Part shown: piece by piece, positions 7,107 to 59,087 of the stretch
How the letters are laid out: each line of letters begins with the position of its first letter
Numbering within the stretch: position 1 is the stretch's first letter
Made by a program: the position numbers and the translations under genes
Notes under the pieces: model-generated
What the model was told of the DNA's origin: nothing
Databases searched by the model: none
Seen by the model: the letters and a program-made list of their open reading frames with translations, nothing else
NCBI GenBank assembly: GCA_963724495.1
Contig: CAVRUZ010000002.1
Location: 463,425 to 527,424 of the forward strand
Direction of reading: 5' to 3'
Source of the DNA: an uncultured Actinomycetota bacterium
GTDB taxonomy: Bacteria > Actinomycetota > Actinomycetes > Propionibacteriales > DAIQRJ01
DNA: 64,000 bases

Positions 7107-7620
7107 TCCGGGTCACGACCTTTGCGCCAGGTAGCGCCGCCGCCTGCGTCGCGTTCCATCACCGCCGCGACGTGGCCTGCCCGCGACGCGAAACATGCAG
7201 GAGCAGGCCGCAAAGCGGTCGATGTCGGGCCATATCGGACGCGGTCGGTCCTCGACTGCATGTTTCCCGCGGGTCATCAGGCAAGCCGGCCTCGCCCGGC
7301 GCCGCGTCCGCATGCGGGTCCAGGCCAGGCGCTGCGACCGCAAACATGCAGCAGCAGGCCGCAAGGCGGTCGATGTCGGGCCATATCGGACGCGGGTGGT
7401 CCCGACTGCATGTTTCCCGCGGGGTCATCAGGCCAGCCGGGCTCGCCCGCCGCCGCGTCCCGCATGCGGGTCCAGGCCAGGCCGCGACCGCAAACATGCA
7501 GTAGCAGGCCGCAAAGCAGCCGATGTCGGGCCATATCGGACGCGGGTCGGTCCTCGACTGCATGTCTCCCGCGGTACATCAGGCCAAGCCGGCTCGCCCC
7601 GGCGCCGCCTCCGGACGGTC
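7107..7620. repeat. tandem array, about 3.4 units of 150/151 bp, each unit = ~75-nt palindromic element plus ~76-nt conserved linker
   Basis: AAACATGCAG starts at 7191, 7342 and 7492. Element cores are 7191-7265, 7342-7415 and 7492-7567, with termini AAACATGCAG...CTGCATGTTT. The linkers are also conserved and contain the CCGCATGCGG palindrome. Confidence 0.9.
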
Positions 7621-7771
7621 TGAGCCCGCGGCGCGTGCCGACACCAGCGCCACCGAGCGCCGGCCATAGGCTCAGGTGACCGTTTCTCCAGAACCGCGGA
7701 GCCCGCATGCCCGGCCACACAGACCGCGCCGTGACTGACCAGCGAAGCCGACCCACCACCGGCCGCGGTTG

Positions 7772-16832: not shown

Positions 16833-18401
16833 GTGACCCAGGCTCAGCAGACCACCGCCCCGTCCCCGCCCGCGCTGGAAGCGACGTCCATCCGGCTGCG
16901 CGGCGACGACAACGTCGTGCTCGTCACCGAGGACCTCGAACCCGGGGACTACACCGAGGACGGACGCCCGATCCACGTCGACGTGGCGGTTCCACGCGGG
17001 CACAAGGTCGCCACTGCCGACATCGCCGAGGGCGAGCCGGTGCGTAAGTACGGCCAGGTCATCGGGTTCGCCGACCGGCTGATCGGCCGCGGCAATCACG
17101 TGCACACCCACAACGTCGCGTACCGGACCTTCGTCCGCGAGGCTGACTACGGCGCCGACGCGGTTCCGACCCAGTACGTCCCGGAGTCGGAGCGGGCGAC
17201 GTTCCAGGGGATCCGCCGACCCGACGGCAGCGCGGCCACCCGCAACTACCTCGGCATCCTCACCACCGTCAACTGCTCGGCCACTGCGGCCAAGCTGATC
17301 GCCGAGCGGATGCGCGGCATCATCGCGGAGAACTTCCCGACCGTCGACGGCATCGTCGCGCTGACGCACGGGACCGGCTGCGGCATGGCCGGCCCGGGCA
17401 GCGAAGGCTTCGAGATCCTTCGGCGGACGATGACGGGGTACGCAAGCCATCCCAACTTCGCCGGCTTCCTCGTTCTGGGGTTGGGCTGCGAGGTCAACGA
17501 GGTGCAGCGCCTCACCAGGTCGTGGGAGATCCCAGACCACAAGATGGTCCAGGCCATGACCATCCAGGAGCTCGGCGGAACCAGGCGGGCGGTCGAGGCC
17601 GGCACCGCAGCGCTGAAGGAGATGCTGCCCGAGGCGTCGAACGTGGAGCGGGAACCGATCTCGGCCAGCGAACTCGTGCTCGCCATGGAGTGCGGAGGCT
17701 CCGACGGCTACTCCGGCATCACGGCCAACCCGGCCCTCGGCGCCGCTGCCGACCTGCTCATCCGTCACGGCGGCACCGCCGCTTTCGGCGAGACACCCGA
17801 GATCTACGGCGCTGAGCACCTGTTGATGCGGCGGGCAGTGAGCGACGAGGTCGCGGACAAGCTCGCCCGGCGCATCGCCTGGTGGGAGGACTACACCGCC
17901 AAGAACAACGGCTCGATGGACAACAACCCCTCGCCGGGCAACAAGGCCGGTGGGCTCACGACGATCCTGGAGAAGTCGCTGGGTGCCGCCGCCAAGGGTG
18001 GGTCGACGAACCTGGTGGACGTCGTCGAGTACGCAGAGCCGTTGACGGCCAAGGGCCTGATCTTCATGGACACTCCCGGCTACGACCCGGTGAACGCGAC
18101 CGGACTGGTGGCGGGCGGCGCGCAGGTGCTGTGCTTCACCACCGGTCGCGGCTCCGCGTTCGGGTGTTCGCCCACGCCGAGCATCAAGCTCGCCACGAAC
18201 TCCGACGTGTACCGCCGGATGGACGAGGACATGGACATCAACTGCGGCGACATCGCCGACGGGGTGACCAGCGTGCCGGAGAAGGGTGCGGAGATCTTCG
18301 CCAGGATCCTGCAGGTCGCATCGGGGGAGAAGACGTTCTCCGAGGACCTCGGCTACGGCCAGGAGGAGTTCGTCCCCTGGCAGCTCGGCGCGACGATGTA
18401 G
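16833..18401 (+). CDS. UxaA family hydrolase (altronate/galactarate dehydratase-like)
   Basis: 522 aa. SAF-like N-domain (VPRGHKVATADIAEGEPVRKYGQVIG) followed by the NYLGILTTVNCSA...GCG dehydratase core. GTG start. Confidence 0.85.
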   Translation: MTQAQQTTAPSPPALEATSIRLRGDDNVVLVTEDLEPGDYTEDGRPIHVDVAVPRGHKVATADIAEGEPVRKYGQVIGFADRLIGRGNHVHTHNVAYRTFVREADYGADAVPTQYVPESERATFQGIRRPDGSAATRNYLGILTTVNCSATAAKLIAERMRGIIAENFPTVDGIVALTHGTGCGMAGPGSEGFEILRRTMTGYASHPNFAGFLVLGLGCEVNEVQRLTRSWEIPDHKMVQAMTIQELGGTRRAVEAGTAALKEMLPEASNVEREPISASELVLAMECGGSDGYSGITANPALGAAADLLIRHGGTAAFGETPEIYGAEHLLMRRAVSDEVADKLARRIAWWEDYTAKNNGSMDNNPSPGNKAGGLTTILEKSLGAAAKGGSTNLVDVVEYAEPLTAKGLIFMDTPGYDPVNATGLVAGGAQVLCFTTGRGSAFGCSPTPSIKLATNSDVYRRMDEDMDINCGDIADGVTSVPEKGAEIFARILQVASGEKTFSEDLGYGQEEFVPWQLGATM

Positions 18402-18462
18402 GCCAGCGGGGCGGGTCCCAGCCGCTACGGCTACTGCCCGCCCTGGCCGGCGCAATCGCGCC

Positions 18463-18537
18463 AAACATGCAAGCGCCACGCGTCCTGCGGGCAACAAAGC
18501 GGGACATGTCCGGACTCGTCCGGCTCGGCTGCATGCC
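18463..18537 (+). repeat. solo copy of the ~75-nt AACATGCA...TGCATG palindromic element
   Basis: AAACATGCAAGCGCC...GGGACATGTCCGGACTCG...GGCTGCATGCC. It starts 62 nt after the uxaA-like stop and lies upstream of the Rieske gene. Confidence 0.8.
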
Positions 18538-18761
18538 TCGTGGCCGAGGCACGGACCGATCTGCCCTGAACCGGCCCCACAGCAGATGCGGACGAACTGA
18601 TCGGCGCGTGAACCGTTCGCAGGTTGCGGTCGTCACGGATCATGACGGGGAGTGACCGCTTTCAGGAGGCAGCTCTCTAGGAGTCCATTCGTTCAGTCAC
18701 TGCGTGCCTGCGGTGAGTGCACTGTCGACGGCCAGGACCGACCCAGACGATCGGAGATCCC

Positions 18762-19390: not shown

Positions 19391-19430
19391 GCGCGCCCGC
19401 CCGGTTGCCGTCCCAACCGGGCGGGCGCGC
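19391..19430 (+). terminator. perfect 17-bp stem hairpin downstream of the Rieske gene
   Basis: GCGCGCCCGCCCGGTTG-CCGTCC-CAACCGGGCGGGCGCGC followed by TTCGTGG. It starts 75 nt after the stop at 19316. Confidence 0.55.
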
Positions 19431-27208: not shown

Positions 27209-27211
27209 TCC

Positions 27212-27805
27212 TCAGCCCTCCGCCTGCGCTGTCGCGGCGTCGGGGTCGGGATCGGCAACGCGGTACTGGCTGCCGTCGGGCGTGCGCACCAGGAAGCCCC
27301 GATCGACAAGGGCACGCCGCAGCCCGGCATAGTCGTCGGTGACCTGCAGCAGGACTCCGTTGACCGCGGGTTCGGCGTAGTCGCGTCCGGCCTCGAACAG
27401 CGGCAGCACGCGCCGGGCGAGTCGGTCGGCCAACTCCGGATCGCTGGGGAGGCCCTGGAGTCGTCCCCACGGCAGGAACGGGCCGAGGTCGTGATCGGCG
27501 ACCTCGGCTCCGACCGGACTCTGGGCCACGAGGGCATCGACGGTCGACCGCACGGCGACCGCGTCGAAGGCGATCCGGTCCGGCGTGGGCGCGGTCAGCA
27601 CGCCGGCGTCCAGCCCTCGCCCGATGGCGTCACCGAAGGACCGCAGTGCCAGCCCCGTCTGCGGACGCAGCTCGTCCAGCAGCGCCGGGGTGCCAGGTCG
27701 GCGGGGGAGGGCGGCCAGAACGGCCGCGACATCCGGGTGGGCCAATGCGGCGAGCATCTGCGCAGAGCGAGCGGCTAGCCGGAAGCGTTCGACGTCGTCG
27801 ACCAT
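27212..27805 (-). CDS. DUF2087 domain-containing protein
   Basis: The C-terminal block [52 protein letters not shown] is typical of DUF2087. ATG 27805 is preceded by GAGGA. It is antisense to the glycolytic operon. Confidence 0.7.
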
Positions 27806-27868
27806 GCGGGGATCCTCGCCGATTCCTGGTCGGTCGAACCAGGGGCTCCGGAGCATCGTGCTGGCGCG

Positions 27869-27942
27869 AAACATGCAGCGGCCCTCGTGGCGGGCCGGAC
27901 AAATGCGCGCATGTCCCGACTCGGGCGTCGCGGCTGCATGTT
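27869..27942 (+). repeat. copy of the ~75-nt palindromic element
   Basis: AAACATGCAGCGGCC...GCGCATGTCCCGACTCGGGCGTCGCGGCTGCATGTT, with 10-bp perfect terminal inverted repeats. It lies between the GNAT stop and the DUF2087 start. Confidence 0.85.
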
Positions 27943-27982
27943 GGGCGTCACGGTCGAAGTCGGCGTGTGCGGACCTGACGCG

Positions 27983-28792
27983 TCACAGCTCCCGCCAGTT
28001 GGCCCGGACGAACTGCACGCGCATGCCCACTCGCTCCATGTTGCGATGGCTGGTGGAGAGGTAGTTGGCGCCGCTGCAGACGAACTCGGCGTCTGCCCGG
28101 CTCGCGTCGGCGATCCGCCGGCGCAGGAGAGCGGACTGGAGGCCGCGACCGCGGAACGCTGGGTCGGTGGCCGCGTCGGCGCAGTAGCCGATGTTGTCGT
28201 GCAGGAAGAGGATTCCTGCCGCGGCCGGGACGCCATCGGCGCGCGCGAGATACAGCCGCCAGCCAGGAAGCCCCAACCACGGGCGCACATTGGCCTTGAA
28301 CCCGTCGCCGTCCGGAATCTCTCGTCCCGCGATGTAGGCGTCGAGGAAGACTTCCATCGCCTCTGCCGTCGTCACCTGCTCCACGGACGTGTCGCCCGCG
28401 TCGGCATCCGCATCGGGTTCGCAGATCAGCGACGCATGGAAGTCCGCCTGGAAGTAGCCGAACCGGGCGAGCTCCCGTCCGAGGGCTTCGTCGTCGATGC
28501 CGGGCACGATCTCGAAGTTCGTCGTGGCTTCGGCTTGTCGGTACCACTCGACCAGGGGTGCGATGTGGCGCTCGAGCCCGGCCCGCAGCCCGGTGACGCC
28601 GTTGAAGTAGGGCAGGTGGCGCGCCATCACCGCCGTGACCCCGTCGTCGAGTTGGCGATAGGCGACGCCGACCGGGTTGCCCGGGATCCGCTCGAGCACC
28701 TGCAGGCGCGAGAGCTTGTAAGCGGTCTCGACAGCGACGGTCCGGCGGACCAGGTCGGCCGACGGTACGAGGTGGGGCATCGGGTCGACCAC
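27983..28792 (-). CDS. GNAT family N-acetyltransferase
   Basis: The C-terminal acetyl-CoA fold contains [17 protein letters not shown]. The GTG 28792 start is chosen by analogy with the identical RBS/start module of the neighbouring gene. The track ORF starts at 28828. Confidence 0.7.
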
Positions 28793-28852
28793 GGGCGGAT
28801 CCTCGCCGATCGCTGTCCGTCCCGCCACGTCTGCGTCGCGGGTTCCCGCGCC

Positions 28853-28926
28853 CTACATGCACCGGACCTCGACCCGCGCCCGACGAATGCGGGTATGTCT
28901 GGATTCGGGCGTTGCGGCTGCATGCG
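28853..28926 (+). repeat. copy of the ~75-nt palindromic element (diverged termini)
   Basis: CTACATGCACCGGACC...GGGTATGTCTGGATTCGGGCGTTGCGGCTGCATGCG. It lies between the divergent GNAT and tpiA starts. Confidence 0.75.
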
Positions 28927-29044
28927 TCGTGTCCGTGGCCGACCGTGCGGGGAGGCGACGGCCGCGGCCATGAACAGCTGGCCGCCGGACCGAGCCGCGC
29001 CACTATCCTGCGGACGACCGCGAGCCCCCAGGCACAGGAGCAGC

Positions 29045-31063: not shown

Positions 31064-31120
31064 GGCAGGCTAGTGGTGCAGACCGACGGTCCGGCCGCCG
31101 GCAGCGCCGCCTGACACGCC

Positions 31121-31175
31121 GAGTGGGCGCAATCTGTCGCCTGGACCGCGCGCAGGCGCCAGATTGCGCCCACTC
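31121..31175 (-). terminator. long perfect inverted repeat after the last gene of the pentose-phosphate operon
   Basis: GAGTGGGCGCAATCTG (31121-31136) pairs with CAGATTGCGCCCACTC (31160-31175), 16/16 bp, with an inner GCCTG/CAGGC pair. It lies 28 nt downstream of the stop at 31204. No U-tract. Confidence 0.5.
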
Positions 31176-31203
31176 GACGAGGGCGTTGGGGCTGCGGCGC
31201 CGA

Positions 31204-58879: not shown

Positions 58880-58984
58880 GCCAAGCAGCGTGTCCTGACG
58901 AAGCCGATCGCGCCGCTGTGCCTCGTCACCTTCGCGGGCTGACATCTGTCACGTTCGCGCAGCAGCTGCGAAGAGGCTCGCGCC

Positions 58985-59060
58985 AGACATGCAGCCGCAC
59001 TGTTCGCGCGCCGCGGATAGCCGCACATGTCCGGATCTGCGGCCTTGGCCGTGCATGTTT
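58985..59060 (+). repeat. solo copy of the ~75-nt palindromic element
   Basis: AGACATGCAGCCGC...CCGCACATGTCCGGATCTGCGG...CCGTGCATGTTT. It lies between the MMPL stop (59088) and the ABC ATPase start. Confidence 0.8.
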
Positions 59061-59087
59061 GGCGCGTATCGAGGCCGGCGGGTGCGG

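Follow-up and report, generated by a model that had tools for sequence, protein, structure and literature searches.

We consider, with moderate confidence, that the repeat family described here is a lineage-specific REPIN/MITE-like element of ~85 bp that is under selection and that is predicted to act as a protein-binding module of double-stranded DNA, in which the geometry is selected and the filler is not. The family was studied in a window of 64,000 nt, by which we mean the whole stretch of DNA that was analysed. It has many traits in common with REPINs, but it has no spacer hairpin, no tag, and no target-site duplication, and is therefore best described as a variant of the REPIN/MITE kind. 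To our knowledge, bacteria rarely carry small repeats that persist, and the best-studied example, REPIN/RAYT, comes mainly from Proteobacteria. The window has a G+C content of 68.8% and carries, among other genes, uvrA, uvrC, whiA, and gap-pgk-tpiA. Among named organisms, the best match to its TpiA is that of Phycicoccus (76% identity), which is surpassed only by two metagenome proteins (97% and 94%); this places the host in a poorly sampled actinobacterial lineage. Exact-protein look-ups of the dehydratase, the 281-aa GNAT ORF, TpiA, and the Rieske protein returned no record.

The element is bounded by inverted ends of 15-16 bp, CGCGCS-AAACATGCAG and CTGCATGTTT-SGCGCG. In the consensus of the solo copies, CGCGCS-AAACATGCAG is followed by a filler of ~18-22 nt, by CCGACAAGTGCCGACATGTCCGGAYYYG, by ~10 further nucleotides, and by GGCTGCATGTTT-SGCGCG. 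The asymmetric internal block, referred to here as block B, reads CCGAYAWGnnCCGACATGTCCGGAYYYG (..CCGACATGTCCGGAYYYG), and its core, GGACATGTCC, is a palindrome. The filler of ~18 bp is free in sequence and fixed in length. In 20 of 28 copies, 57 nt separate CATGCA from TGCATG (range over all copies 55-58 nt), which puts the centres of the two hexamers ~63-64 bp, or about six helical turns, apart and hence on the same face of the duplex. The alignment of the 28 copies is nearly gap-free, and pairwise identity among independent copies falls from 0.78-0.82 in the ends through 0.60-0.65 for block B to 0.37-0.47 for the fillers, compared with a calculated ~0.3 for random sequence of this composition. 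There is no conserved column for a GTAG or CGTC tag in the 28-copy alignment. No target-site duplication was found among 15 aligned solos, where a palindromic GCGC duplication would be indistinguishable from an extension of the inverted repeat. Block B was also considered as an internal copy of the end motif; its position-weight-matrix scores fall within the null range, and the ACATG core alone is common to the two. A small peptide was rejected, as the reading frame varies between copies, and a link to CATG avoidance or restriction was likewise rejected, with CATG at 0.94 of expectation.

In the window, the family is present as a tandem array and as four solo copies, at 18463, 27869, 28853, and 58985. 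The array consists of three tandem 150/151-bp units that span 7191-7567, as the initial annotation had described, and it is borne out both by Tandem Repeats Finder (a single array at 7174-7612, period 151, 2.9 copies, 88% matches) and by a shuffle control: when up to one mismatch is allowed, the window contains 11 matches to AAACATGCAG where 0.86 would be expected, and none of 100 shuffles reaches this count. Inverted pairs of AAACATGCAG ends lie at 7191/7256, 7342/7406, 7492/7558, 27869/27934, and 58985/59051, with a single match at 18463. The copy at 28853 is more degenerate (its end, CTACATGCAC, has two mismatches); it came to light with a profile HMM derived from the copies. That HMM finds seven in the window, exactly those already listed, which together with the gene map upholds the earlier count of seven copies at five loci, all seven intergenic. 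The density is about one locus per 13 kb. The internal GATGTCGGGCCATATCGGAC core and the linker CCGCATGCGG are present as first described. The motif (A/G)CATGTC(C/T)GG, which had been attributed to all solo copies, is exact in two of the four; the other two read GCATGTCCCG and TATGTCTGG.

The array opens with a degenerate partial linker (7107-7190), the end of which, gtggcctgcccgcgacgcg, resembles the linker ends gtccaggccaggc(g)ctgcgaccgc; Tandem Repeats Finder places the array start at 7174. Unit 1, which belongs to a tandem-type subfamily, occupies 7186-7270 (core 7191-7265) and is followed by linker 1 (7271-7336), which carries the palindrome CCGCATGCGG, falls in repeat families D2 and D8, and has diverged homologs in the related loci L009 and L010. 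Unit 2 (7337-7420, core 7342-7415) and linker 2 (7421-7486, again with CCGCATGCGG, from the sequence and Tandem Repeats Finder) precede unit 3 (7487-7572, core 7492-7567), the right end of which, CTGCATGTCT, has one mismatch. The partial linker 3 (7573-7620) runs into a conserved region upstream of an ABC transporter gene and is itself conserved in L009 and L010. All three units lie on the minus strand. A profile of the solos gives units 1, 2, and 3 scores of 34.2, 31.0, and 25 bits, respectively, on the minus strand, compared with 20.0 and 16.9 bits and no match on the plus strand, and the orthologous arrays in L009-L012 also score higher on the opposite strand. When reverse-complemented, the units align to the solos almost without gaps, and the copy in L019 is intermediate between both subtypes. 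We thus see a single family that comprises two subfamilies, with the array lying in inverse orientation to the four solos. The uniform plus-strand orientation that had been proposed therefore stands for the solos but not for the array units. Downstream of the array, the ~170 nt up to the ABC-2 operon (7600-7768) are well conserved in L009 and L010 despite the remodelled array next to them, and they may be a promoter or leader for the ABC-2 transporter.

The solos all lie on the plus strand. The copy s1 (18458-18543, core 18463-18538) is situated between a dehydratase-like gene, which ends at 18401, and a Rieske gene, which starts at 18717. The copy s2 (27864-27948, core 27869-27943) lies between the 3' end of a GNAT gene and the 5' end of a DUF2087 gene, both on the minus strand; the longest ORF overlapping it begins within the element, though 27807, preceded by a GAGGA ribosome-binding site, is the likely start. 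The copy s3 (28848-28932, core 28853-28927) occupies the divergent gap between GNAT (minus) and tpiA (plus), and s4 (58980-59065, core 58985-59060) is found between the 3' end of an MMPL gene and the 5' end of an ABC ATPase gene, both on the minus strand. At four of the five window loci the nearest gene 3' end is 85, 62, 40, or 28 nt away, in agreement with the 28-85 nt reported initially. That four solos should share one strand has a probability of 1 in 8 by chance alone, and on one metagenome contig (L021) two copies point in opposite directions. No uniform orientation relative to the flanking genes is seen: at six loci the left end is turned towards a gene start and at four towards a gene end, which amounts to no bias and shows that element orientation is independent of the flanking genes. 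As for orientation relative to replication, the GC skew of the window is too flat for a call. Copies occur in divergent gaps between gene starts at 28853, at 858-945 of L031, and in L002. On L021, three TGACGTCA palindromes at 2930-2990, upstream of a small ORF, adjoin a head-to-head pair of elements and have an operator-like appearance.

The family extends beyond the window. A scan of a genome collection with the perfect 10-nt ends as the query returned eight loci, most of them with the same 53-nt gap. One of these, in a Lapillicoccus MAG (L002 1118-1190), is a true relative, as its interior matches too (AATGTCGGGGTATGCCGGGCG). In a metagenome scan that returned 42 loci, all profile-confirmed matches, 14 copies on 11 contigs, came from the JGI sample Ga0190275. 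One of these contigs is orthologous to the locus at 18463, with 95% identity; the others are thus most likely further loci of a near-identical genome. Relatives come from samples JGI 3300018432 and ENA ERZ27310924 and ERZ27311206. In total, at least 16 independent loci carry the element, and the copies outside the window are all intergenic, in tandem, convergent (L027, L054), and divergent (L031 858-945, L002) gaps. Further copies, 14 in the 95%-identical relative and one in Lapillicoccus, therefore exist, and the earlier description of a dispersed REP/MITE-like intergenic repeat agrees with the copies in the near-identical relative and with the absence of the family from Rfam. The proposal that the family is uncatalogued holds in both Rfam and the literature: searches with sequence strings gave primers only, and keyword searches on actinobacterial MITEs and on REPIN/RAYT in Actinobacteria found nothing relevant.

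Several other matches have different origins. Those in Mangrovibacter and Methanotrichaceae are attributed to chance, since they fall within ORFs, one for a 471-aa protein and one a UspA-like gene, and a family that crosses domains was rejected. The Ensifer/Sinorhizobium matches were rejected as family members; they belong to a separate 101-bp tandem repeat that has only the termini in common with ours. This repeat (Sinorhizobium sp. L005 818-1167; Ensifer L001 and L004) consists of a 73-nt element and a 28-nt palindromic linker, CCTTAAATCG-GATA-CGATTTAAGG; its termini are AAACATGCAG/CTGCATGTTT, its interior is unrelated to that of the window element, its architecture parallels that of the window array, and in L005 it adjoins an FMN riboswitch. 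Two scans of viral contigs contained no family member, and a phage link was dropped; the cluster of 70-nt matches there is conserved coding sequence of low-GC phages. A Bifidobacterium MAG (sp. UBA6881, L007 4533-4648) has, in a stretch of 116 nt that follows a dipeptidase gene, four GTGCCAAACATGCAG, two in each direction. This extended end is the same as that of the window solos (nhmmer E = 9e-4), and the locus may be a distant relative, a weak match which suggests that the family may reach other actinobacterial orders.

The evidence for selection comes from orthologous loci in graded relatives, which were reached via homologs of the flanking proteins. Copies orthologous to s1 are present in L018, L156, and L157, those to s2 in L156 and L159, and those to s3 in L055, L156, and L159. 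At ~90% relatedness (L156), the elements (0.91-0.92) and their flanks (0.71-0.92) diverge at the same rate, so that the signal of selection rests on three more distant loci. Between s1 and L157 (Rieske protein 82%), 44 of 47 positions from block B to the right end are identical (0.94) and the left end is at 0.73, compared with 0.47 for the filler and 0.39 and 0.62 for the flanks. Between s2 and L159 (GNAT protein 78%), the left end is conserved at 0.93 and the stretch from block B to the right end at 0.79, with the filler at 0.44 and the flanks at 0.54 and 0.28; for s3 and L159, the latter stretch is conserved at 0.87 and the flank at 0.53. The flanks of s2 and s3 compared with L159 range over 0.28-0.54, and the neighbouring coding DNA is at 0.77-0.80. 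As the blocks are kept while filler and flanks diverge, these three loci, seen at greater distance, show purifying selection acting on the blocks in place, with the filler free.

Turnover is seen as well. The s1 copy is absent from L158 (Rieske protein 70%, from the same sample as L159) without a remnant, which represents one gain or loss; a clean empty site was not seen in L158, where the intergenic region is too diverged. The array has three units in the window, three in L009, and two in L011, and its period changes from 150/151 bp in the window to 167/164 bp in L009 and 141/163 bp in L010. Neither a RAYT, a transposase, nor another partner protein was found in the 64-kb window and the short related contigs, nor was a full-length parent element with the same ends found in the window or in ~150 kb of related loci.

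Three other non-coding features of the window may be mentioned here. The long leader of the Rieske gene (18600-18716) is highly conserved and retains 0.56-0.66 identity in L158, where the surrounding intergenic DNA is saturated; in Rfam it gives a weak malK-II match (21.8 bits, threshold 52.9), and it is a possible cis-regulatory leader of an undescribed kind. At 19391-19430, ~75 nt past the stop codon of the Rieske gene, a perfect GC-rich stem of 17 bp with a 6-nt loop is a plausible terminator without a T-run. An intergenic hairpin of 95 nt at 31101-31195 has arms of 43 nt that are 79% complementary and a loop of 9 nt; its sequence is unrelated to that of the element family.

The pgk-tpiA junction deserves separate attention. 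In a relative with a TpiA of 76% identity (L056), pgk and tpiA overlap, whereas the window has, at 27209-29044 between these genes, DUF2087 (27212-27807) and GNAT (27983-28792), both on the minus strand, together with two elements. DUF2087 and GNAT also lie between pgk and tpiA in L156 and L159, each followed by an element in plus-strand order. Both genes carry a near-identical ribosome-binding-site/start-codon module, ATCGGCGAGGATCCsCsCrTGGTCGAC, on the minus strand at 27797-27823 and 28784-28810, ~60 nt from s2 and s3, respectively. The two modules are conserved in L159, lie outside the family consensus, and occur only at these two loci and their orthologs; judged by this distribution, the module is a local duplication. 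It accounts for the ~40 nt common to the left of s2 and s3, at those two loci only, and an extended element was therefore rejected. The arrangement at the junction has the look of a cassette; in L031, likewise, a deaminase gene is flanked by two element copies.

Whether the element acts as RNA or as DNA is the question on which the alternatives first divide. RNAalifold, run on 14 and then on 28 copies, finds a single conserved pairing, the CATGCA/TGCATG end stem of 7-10 bp around ~57 nt, which is sequence-invariant and shows compensatory changes in none of seven pairs. With the ends fixed, the interiors fold like shuffled interiors (mean z -0.16, 28 copies). The initially proposed imperfect palindrome of ~75 nt thus holds for the terminal 10-16 bp but not for the interior, and it is really an inverted repeat of 10-16 bp. 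No Rfam family is matched at its gathering threshold, and at permissive thresholds no meaningful match appears, the top weak one being mir-4000 (21.6 bits, threshold 58). No canonical intrinsic terminator (a GC-rich hairpin followed by a T-run) is found in the elements, a promoter inside the element was rejected for want of a sigma-70-like match, and ARAGORN gave no support for a tRNA-like origin. Taken together, the invariant stem, the lack of covariation, the absence of terminator, promoter, and Rfam matches, and the mixed orientation argue for recognition as double-stranded DNA. We therefore regard as unlikely a structured RNA that acts once transcribed, whether as a terminator (intrinsic or bidirectional), as a stabiliser of mRNA 3' ends, or as a small RNA. 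Such an RNA would suit the position of four of the five window loci shortly after a gene 3' end, the AAA and TTT that flank the end stem, the folding of the whole element (z = -2 to -3.7 in five of seven window copies), and the conservation of copies at orthologous loci. However, the sole common helix does not covary, the end change in s3 is not compensatory, the interiors gain nothing over shuffles, no T-run is present, permissive Rfam thresholds yield no match, and copies lie in either orientation to transcription and even in divergent promoter gaps. For the same reasons, the terminator or mRNA stabiliser originally suggested is not supported, and among the functions first offered a protein docking site appears to be the best fit.

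Among DNA-level alternatives, recombination sites like attC that bound gene cassettes would explain conserved ends, a variable middle, and a fixed length, and they would account for the GNAT gene in the window and the deaminase gene in L031, each between two co-oriented copies, and for DUF2087, GNAT, and two elements within an otherwise contiguous pgk-tpiA junction. Nevertheless, we find this explanation very improbable: the interior lacks self-complementarity, CATGCA/TGCATG are the bases that do not vary, in place of the AAC/GTT known from attC (AAAC and GTTT are variable positions in our copies), the pgk-DUF2087-GNAT-tpiA order is old and stable, being shared with L159 at a GNAT identity of 78%, no integrase is nearby, and the orientation of the element relative to the enclosed gene differs between the GNAT and deaminase cases. 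A classical, currently active MITE of an insertion sequence with a DDE transposase, selfish and decaying and with no role for the host, has in our estimate a low probability. Such an element would be expected to be small, to end in inverted repeats of 15-16 bp, to lie between genes at many loci (at least 16 here), and to differ in presence between lineages (one case here), but it should also leave a target-site duplication and near-identical subfamilies from a recent burst, neither of which is seen: the copies have only the ends and block B in common. Nor is there a full-length element in the 64-kb window or in ~150 kb of related loci. In addition, three copies are kept at the same loci with conserved blocks while the flanks are saturated. 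Binding sites encoded by the host that were never mobile, either operators of a regulon or sites of a nucleoid or architectural protein, seem about equally doubtful to us. The palindromic core GGACATGTCC, the fixed helical phasing, and the purifying selection at orthologous loci would all fit, and several neighbours are exporters or modifying enzymes (ABC-2, MMPL, GNAT, deaminase). On the other hand, copies are found in convergent 3'-3' gaps without a promoter (L027, L054), they form tandem arrays that vary in copy number, they occur at a density of about one locus per 13 kb, and an 85-bp composite with a neutral filler would be an unusual form of operator. The REPIN/MITE-like reading, which we prefer, also has points against it, namely the missing partner protein in the window and related contigs, mobility that is represented by one presence/absence difference in a highly diverged region, the lack of a target-site duplication, of a spacer hairpin, and of a GTAG or CGTC tag, divergence at the rate of the flanks at ~90% relatedness, and the resemblance of block B to the end motif in the ACATG core only.

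In the model that follows from the REPIN/MITE-like reading, a non-autonomous element would spread through intergenic DNA and be amplified locally by unequal recombination, giving rise to the tandem array. The element would then persist under selection as a platform of double-stranded DNA, with a sequence-specific protein contacting both ends and the internal block; this protein could be the mobilising enzyme of the element or an architectural protein of the host. That a protein binds, which protein it is, and how the element spread are inferences of the model. If the reading is true, the expected partner, whether a Y1/HUH protein (PF01797), a DDE transposase, or another DNA-binding gene, should be flanked by CGCGCSAAACATGCAG. 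As a more tentative extension, to which we give a rather small chance, the elements could be the DNA half of a vertically inherited partnership of element and protein in Actinobacteria, either a symbiosis like that of REPIN and RAYT or a domesticated transposase or architectural protein with its platform. Such a partnership would have a new geometry, with double-stranded ends six helical turns apart, an internal palindromic site, and no hairpin, and it would be maintained by selection at individual loci. From a practical point of view, the array is a ready-made variable-copy marker for strains of the host lineage.

The comparison with known systems shows where the family stands. The REPs of E. 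coli are stem-loops of 20-40 bp with a GTAG tag, for which binding of IHF, gyrase, and Pol I is documented. Like BIME-1/RIP in E. coli, the window element has inverted ends around an internal block, which in BIME-1 binds protein (IHF). Like the REP/BIME system as a whole, it occurs at about one locus per 13-15 kb without target duplication, in single and tandem forms with conserved linkers and strain-variable copy number. The Correia elements of Neisseria are also ~100 bp long and intergenic, with terminal inverted repeats and an internal site for a host factor; however, they have TA duplications and are similar to one another over their whole length, whereas our family has no duplication and only blocks are conserved. 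MIRUs are direct repeats of 40-100 bp without inverted ends, often within operons. Like MIRU/VNTR loci, our family has actinobacterial intergenic tandem units that vary in copy number between strains, but there is no sequence similarity between the two. With integron attC sites the element shares conserved inverted ends, a variable middle, a constrained architecture, and some copies that flank single genes; in contrast, attC works when its single strand folds and the arms pair, and it has a conserved AAC/GTT; our element shows neither feature. It resembles MITEs in being a small non-coding element with terminal inverted repeats and many copies, but differs from them in having no visible target-site duplication.

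REPs have been defined as stem-loops of 20-40 bp with a stem of 5-13 bp and a loop of 2-20 nt, and GTAG and CGTC REPs have been listed in other phyla but not in Actinobacteria (PMC3733652). In contrast to these, the ends of the window element are not themselves stem-loops and carry neither a GTAG nor a CGTC tag. REPINs, REP doublets that form hairpins and are mobilised by RAYT transposases, pair two conserved repeats of opposite orientation, set at a constant distance of 71 bp in Pseudomonas GI, around a poorly conserved spacer (Bertels & Rainey 2011, PMC3116915). The spacer retains a hairpin although its sequence changes, and the repeats flank a cognate single-copy RAYT, a Y1 transposase. REPINs are distributed randomly in extragenic DNA, mostly singly and in part in ordered tandem clusters, and combine long vertical persistence with high diversity within a genome (PMC3116915; RAREFAN preprint). 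The window family has inverted ends of about 16 nt at a fixed distance of ~66-70 bp, as compared with 71 bp in Pseudomonas GI, and a spacer less conserved than the ends (fillers 0.37-0.47, ends 0.78-0.82), as in REPINs. It is likewise extragenic, mostly single with some tandem clusters, and vertically persistent yet diverse. Unlike REPINs, it has no conserved spacer hairpin (mean z -0.16, with no interior pairs in RNAalifold) and has an additional conserved asymmetric internal block, and this combination implies a different mode of recognition, on double-stranded DNA. The family thus presents a REPIN-like evolutionary signature, with conserved ends, a free middle, vertical persistence, and tandem clusters, in an uncultured lineage of Actinobacteria.
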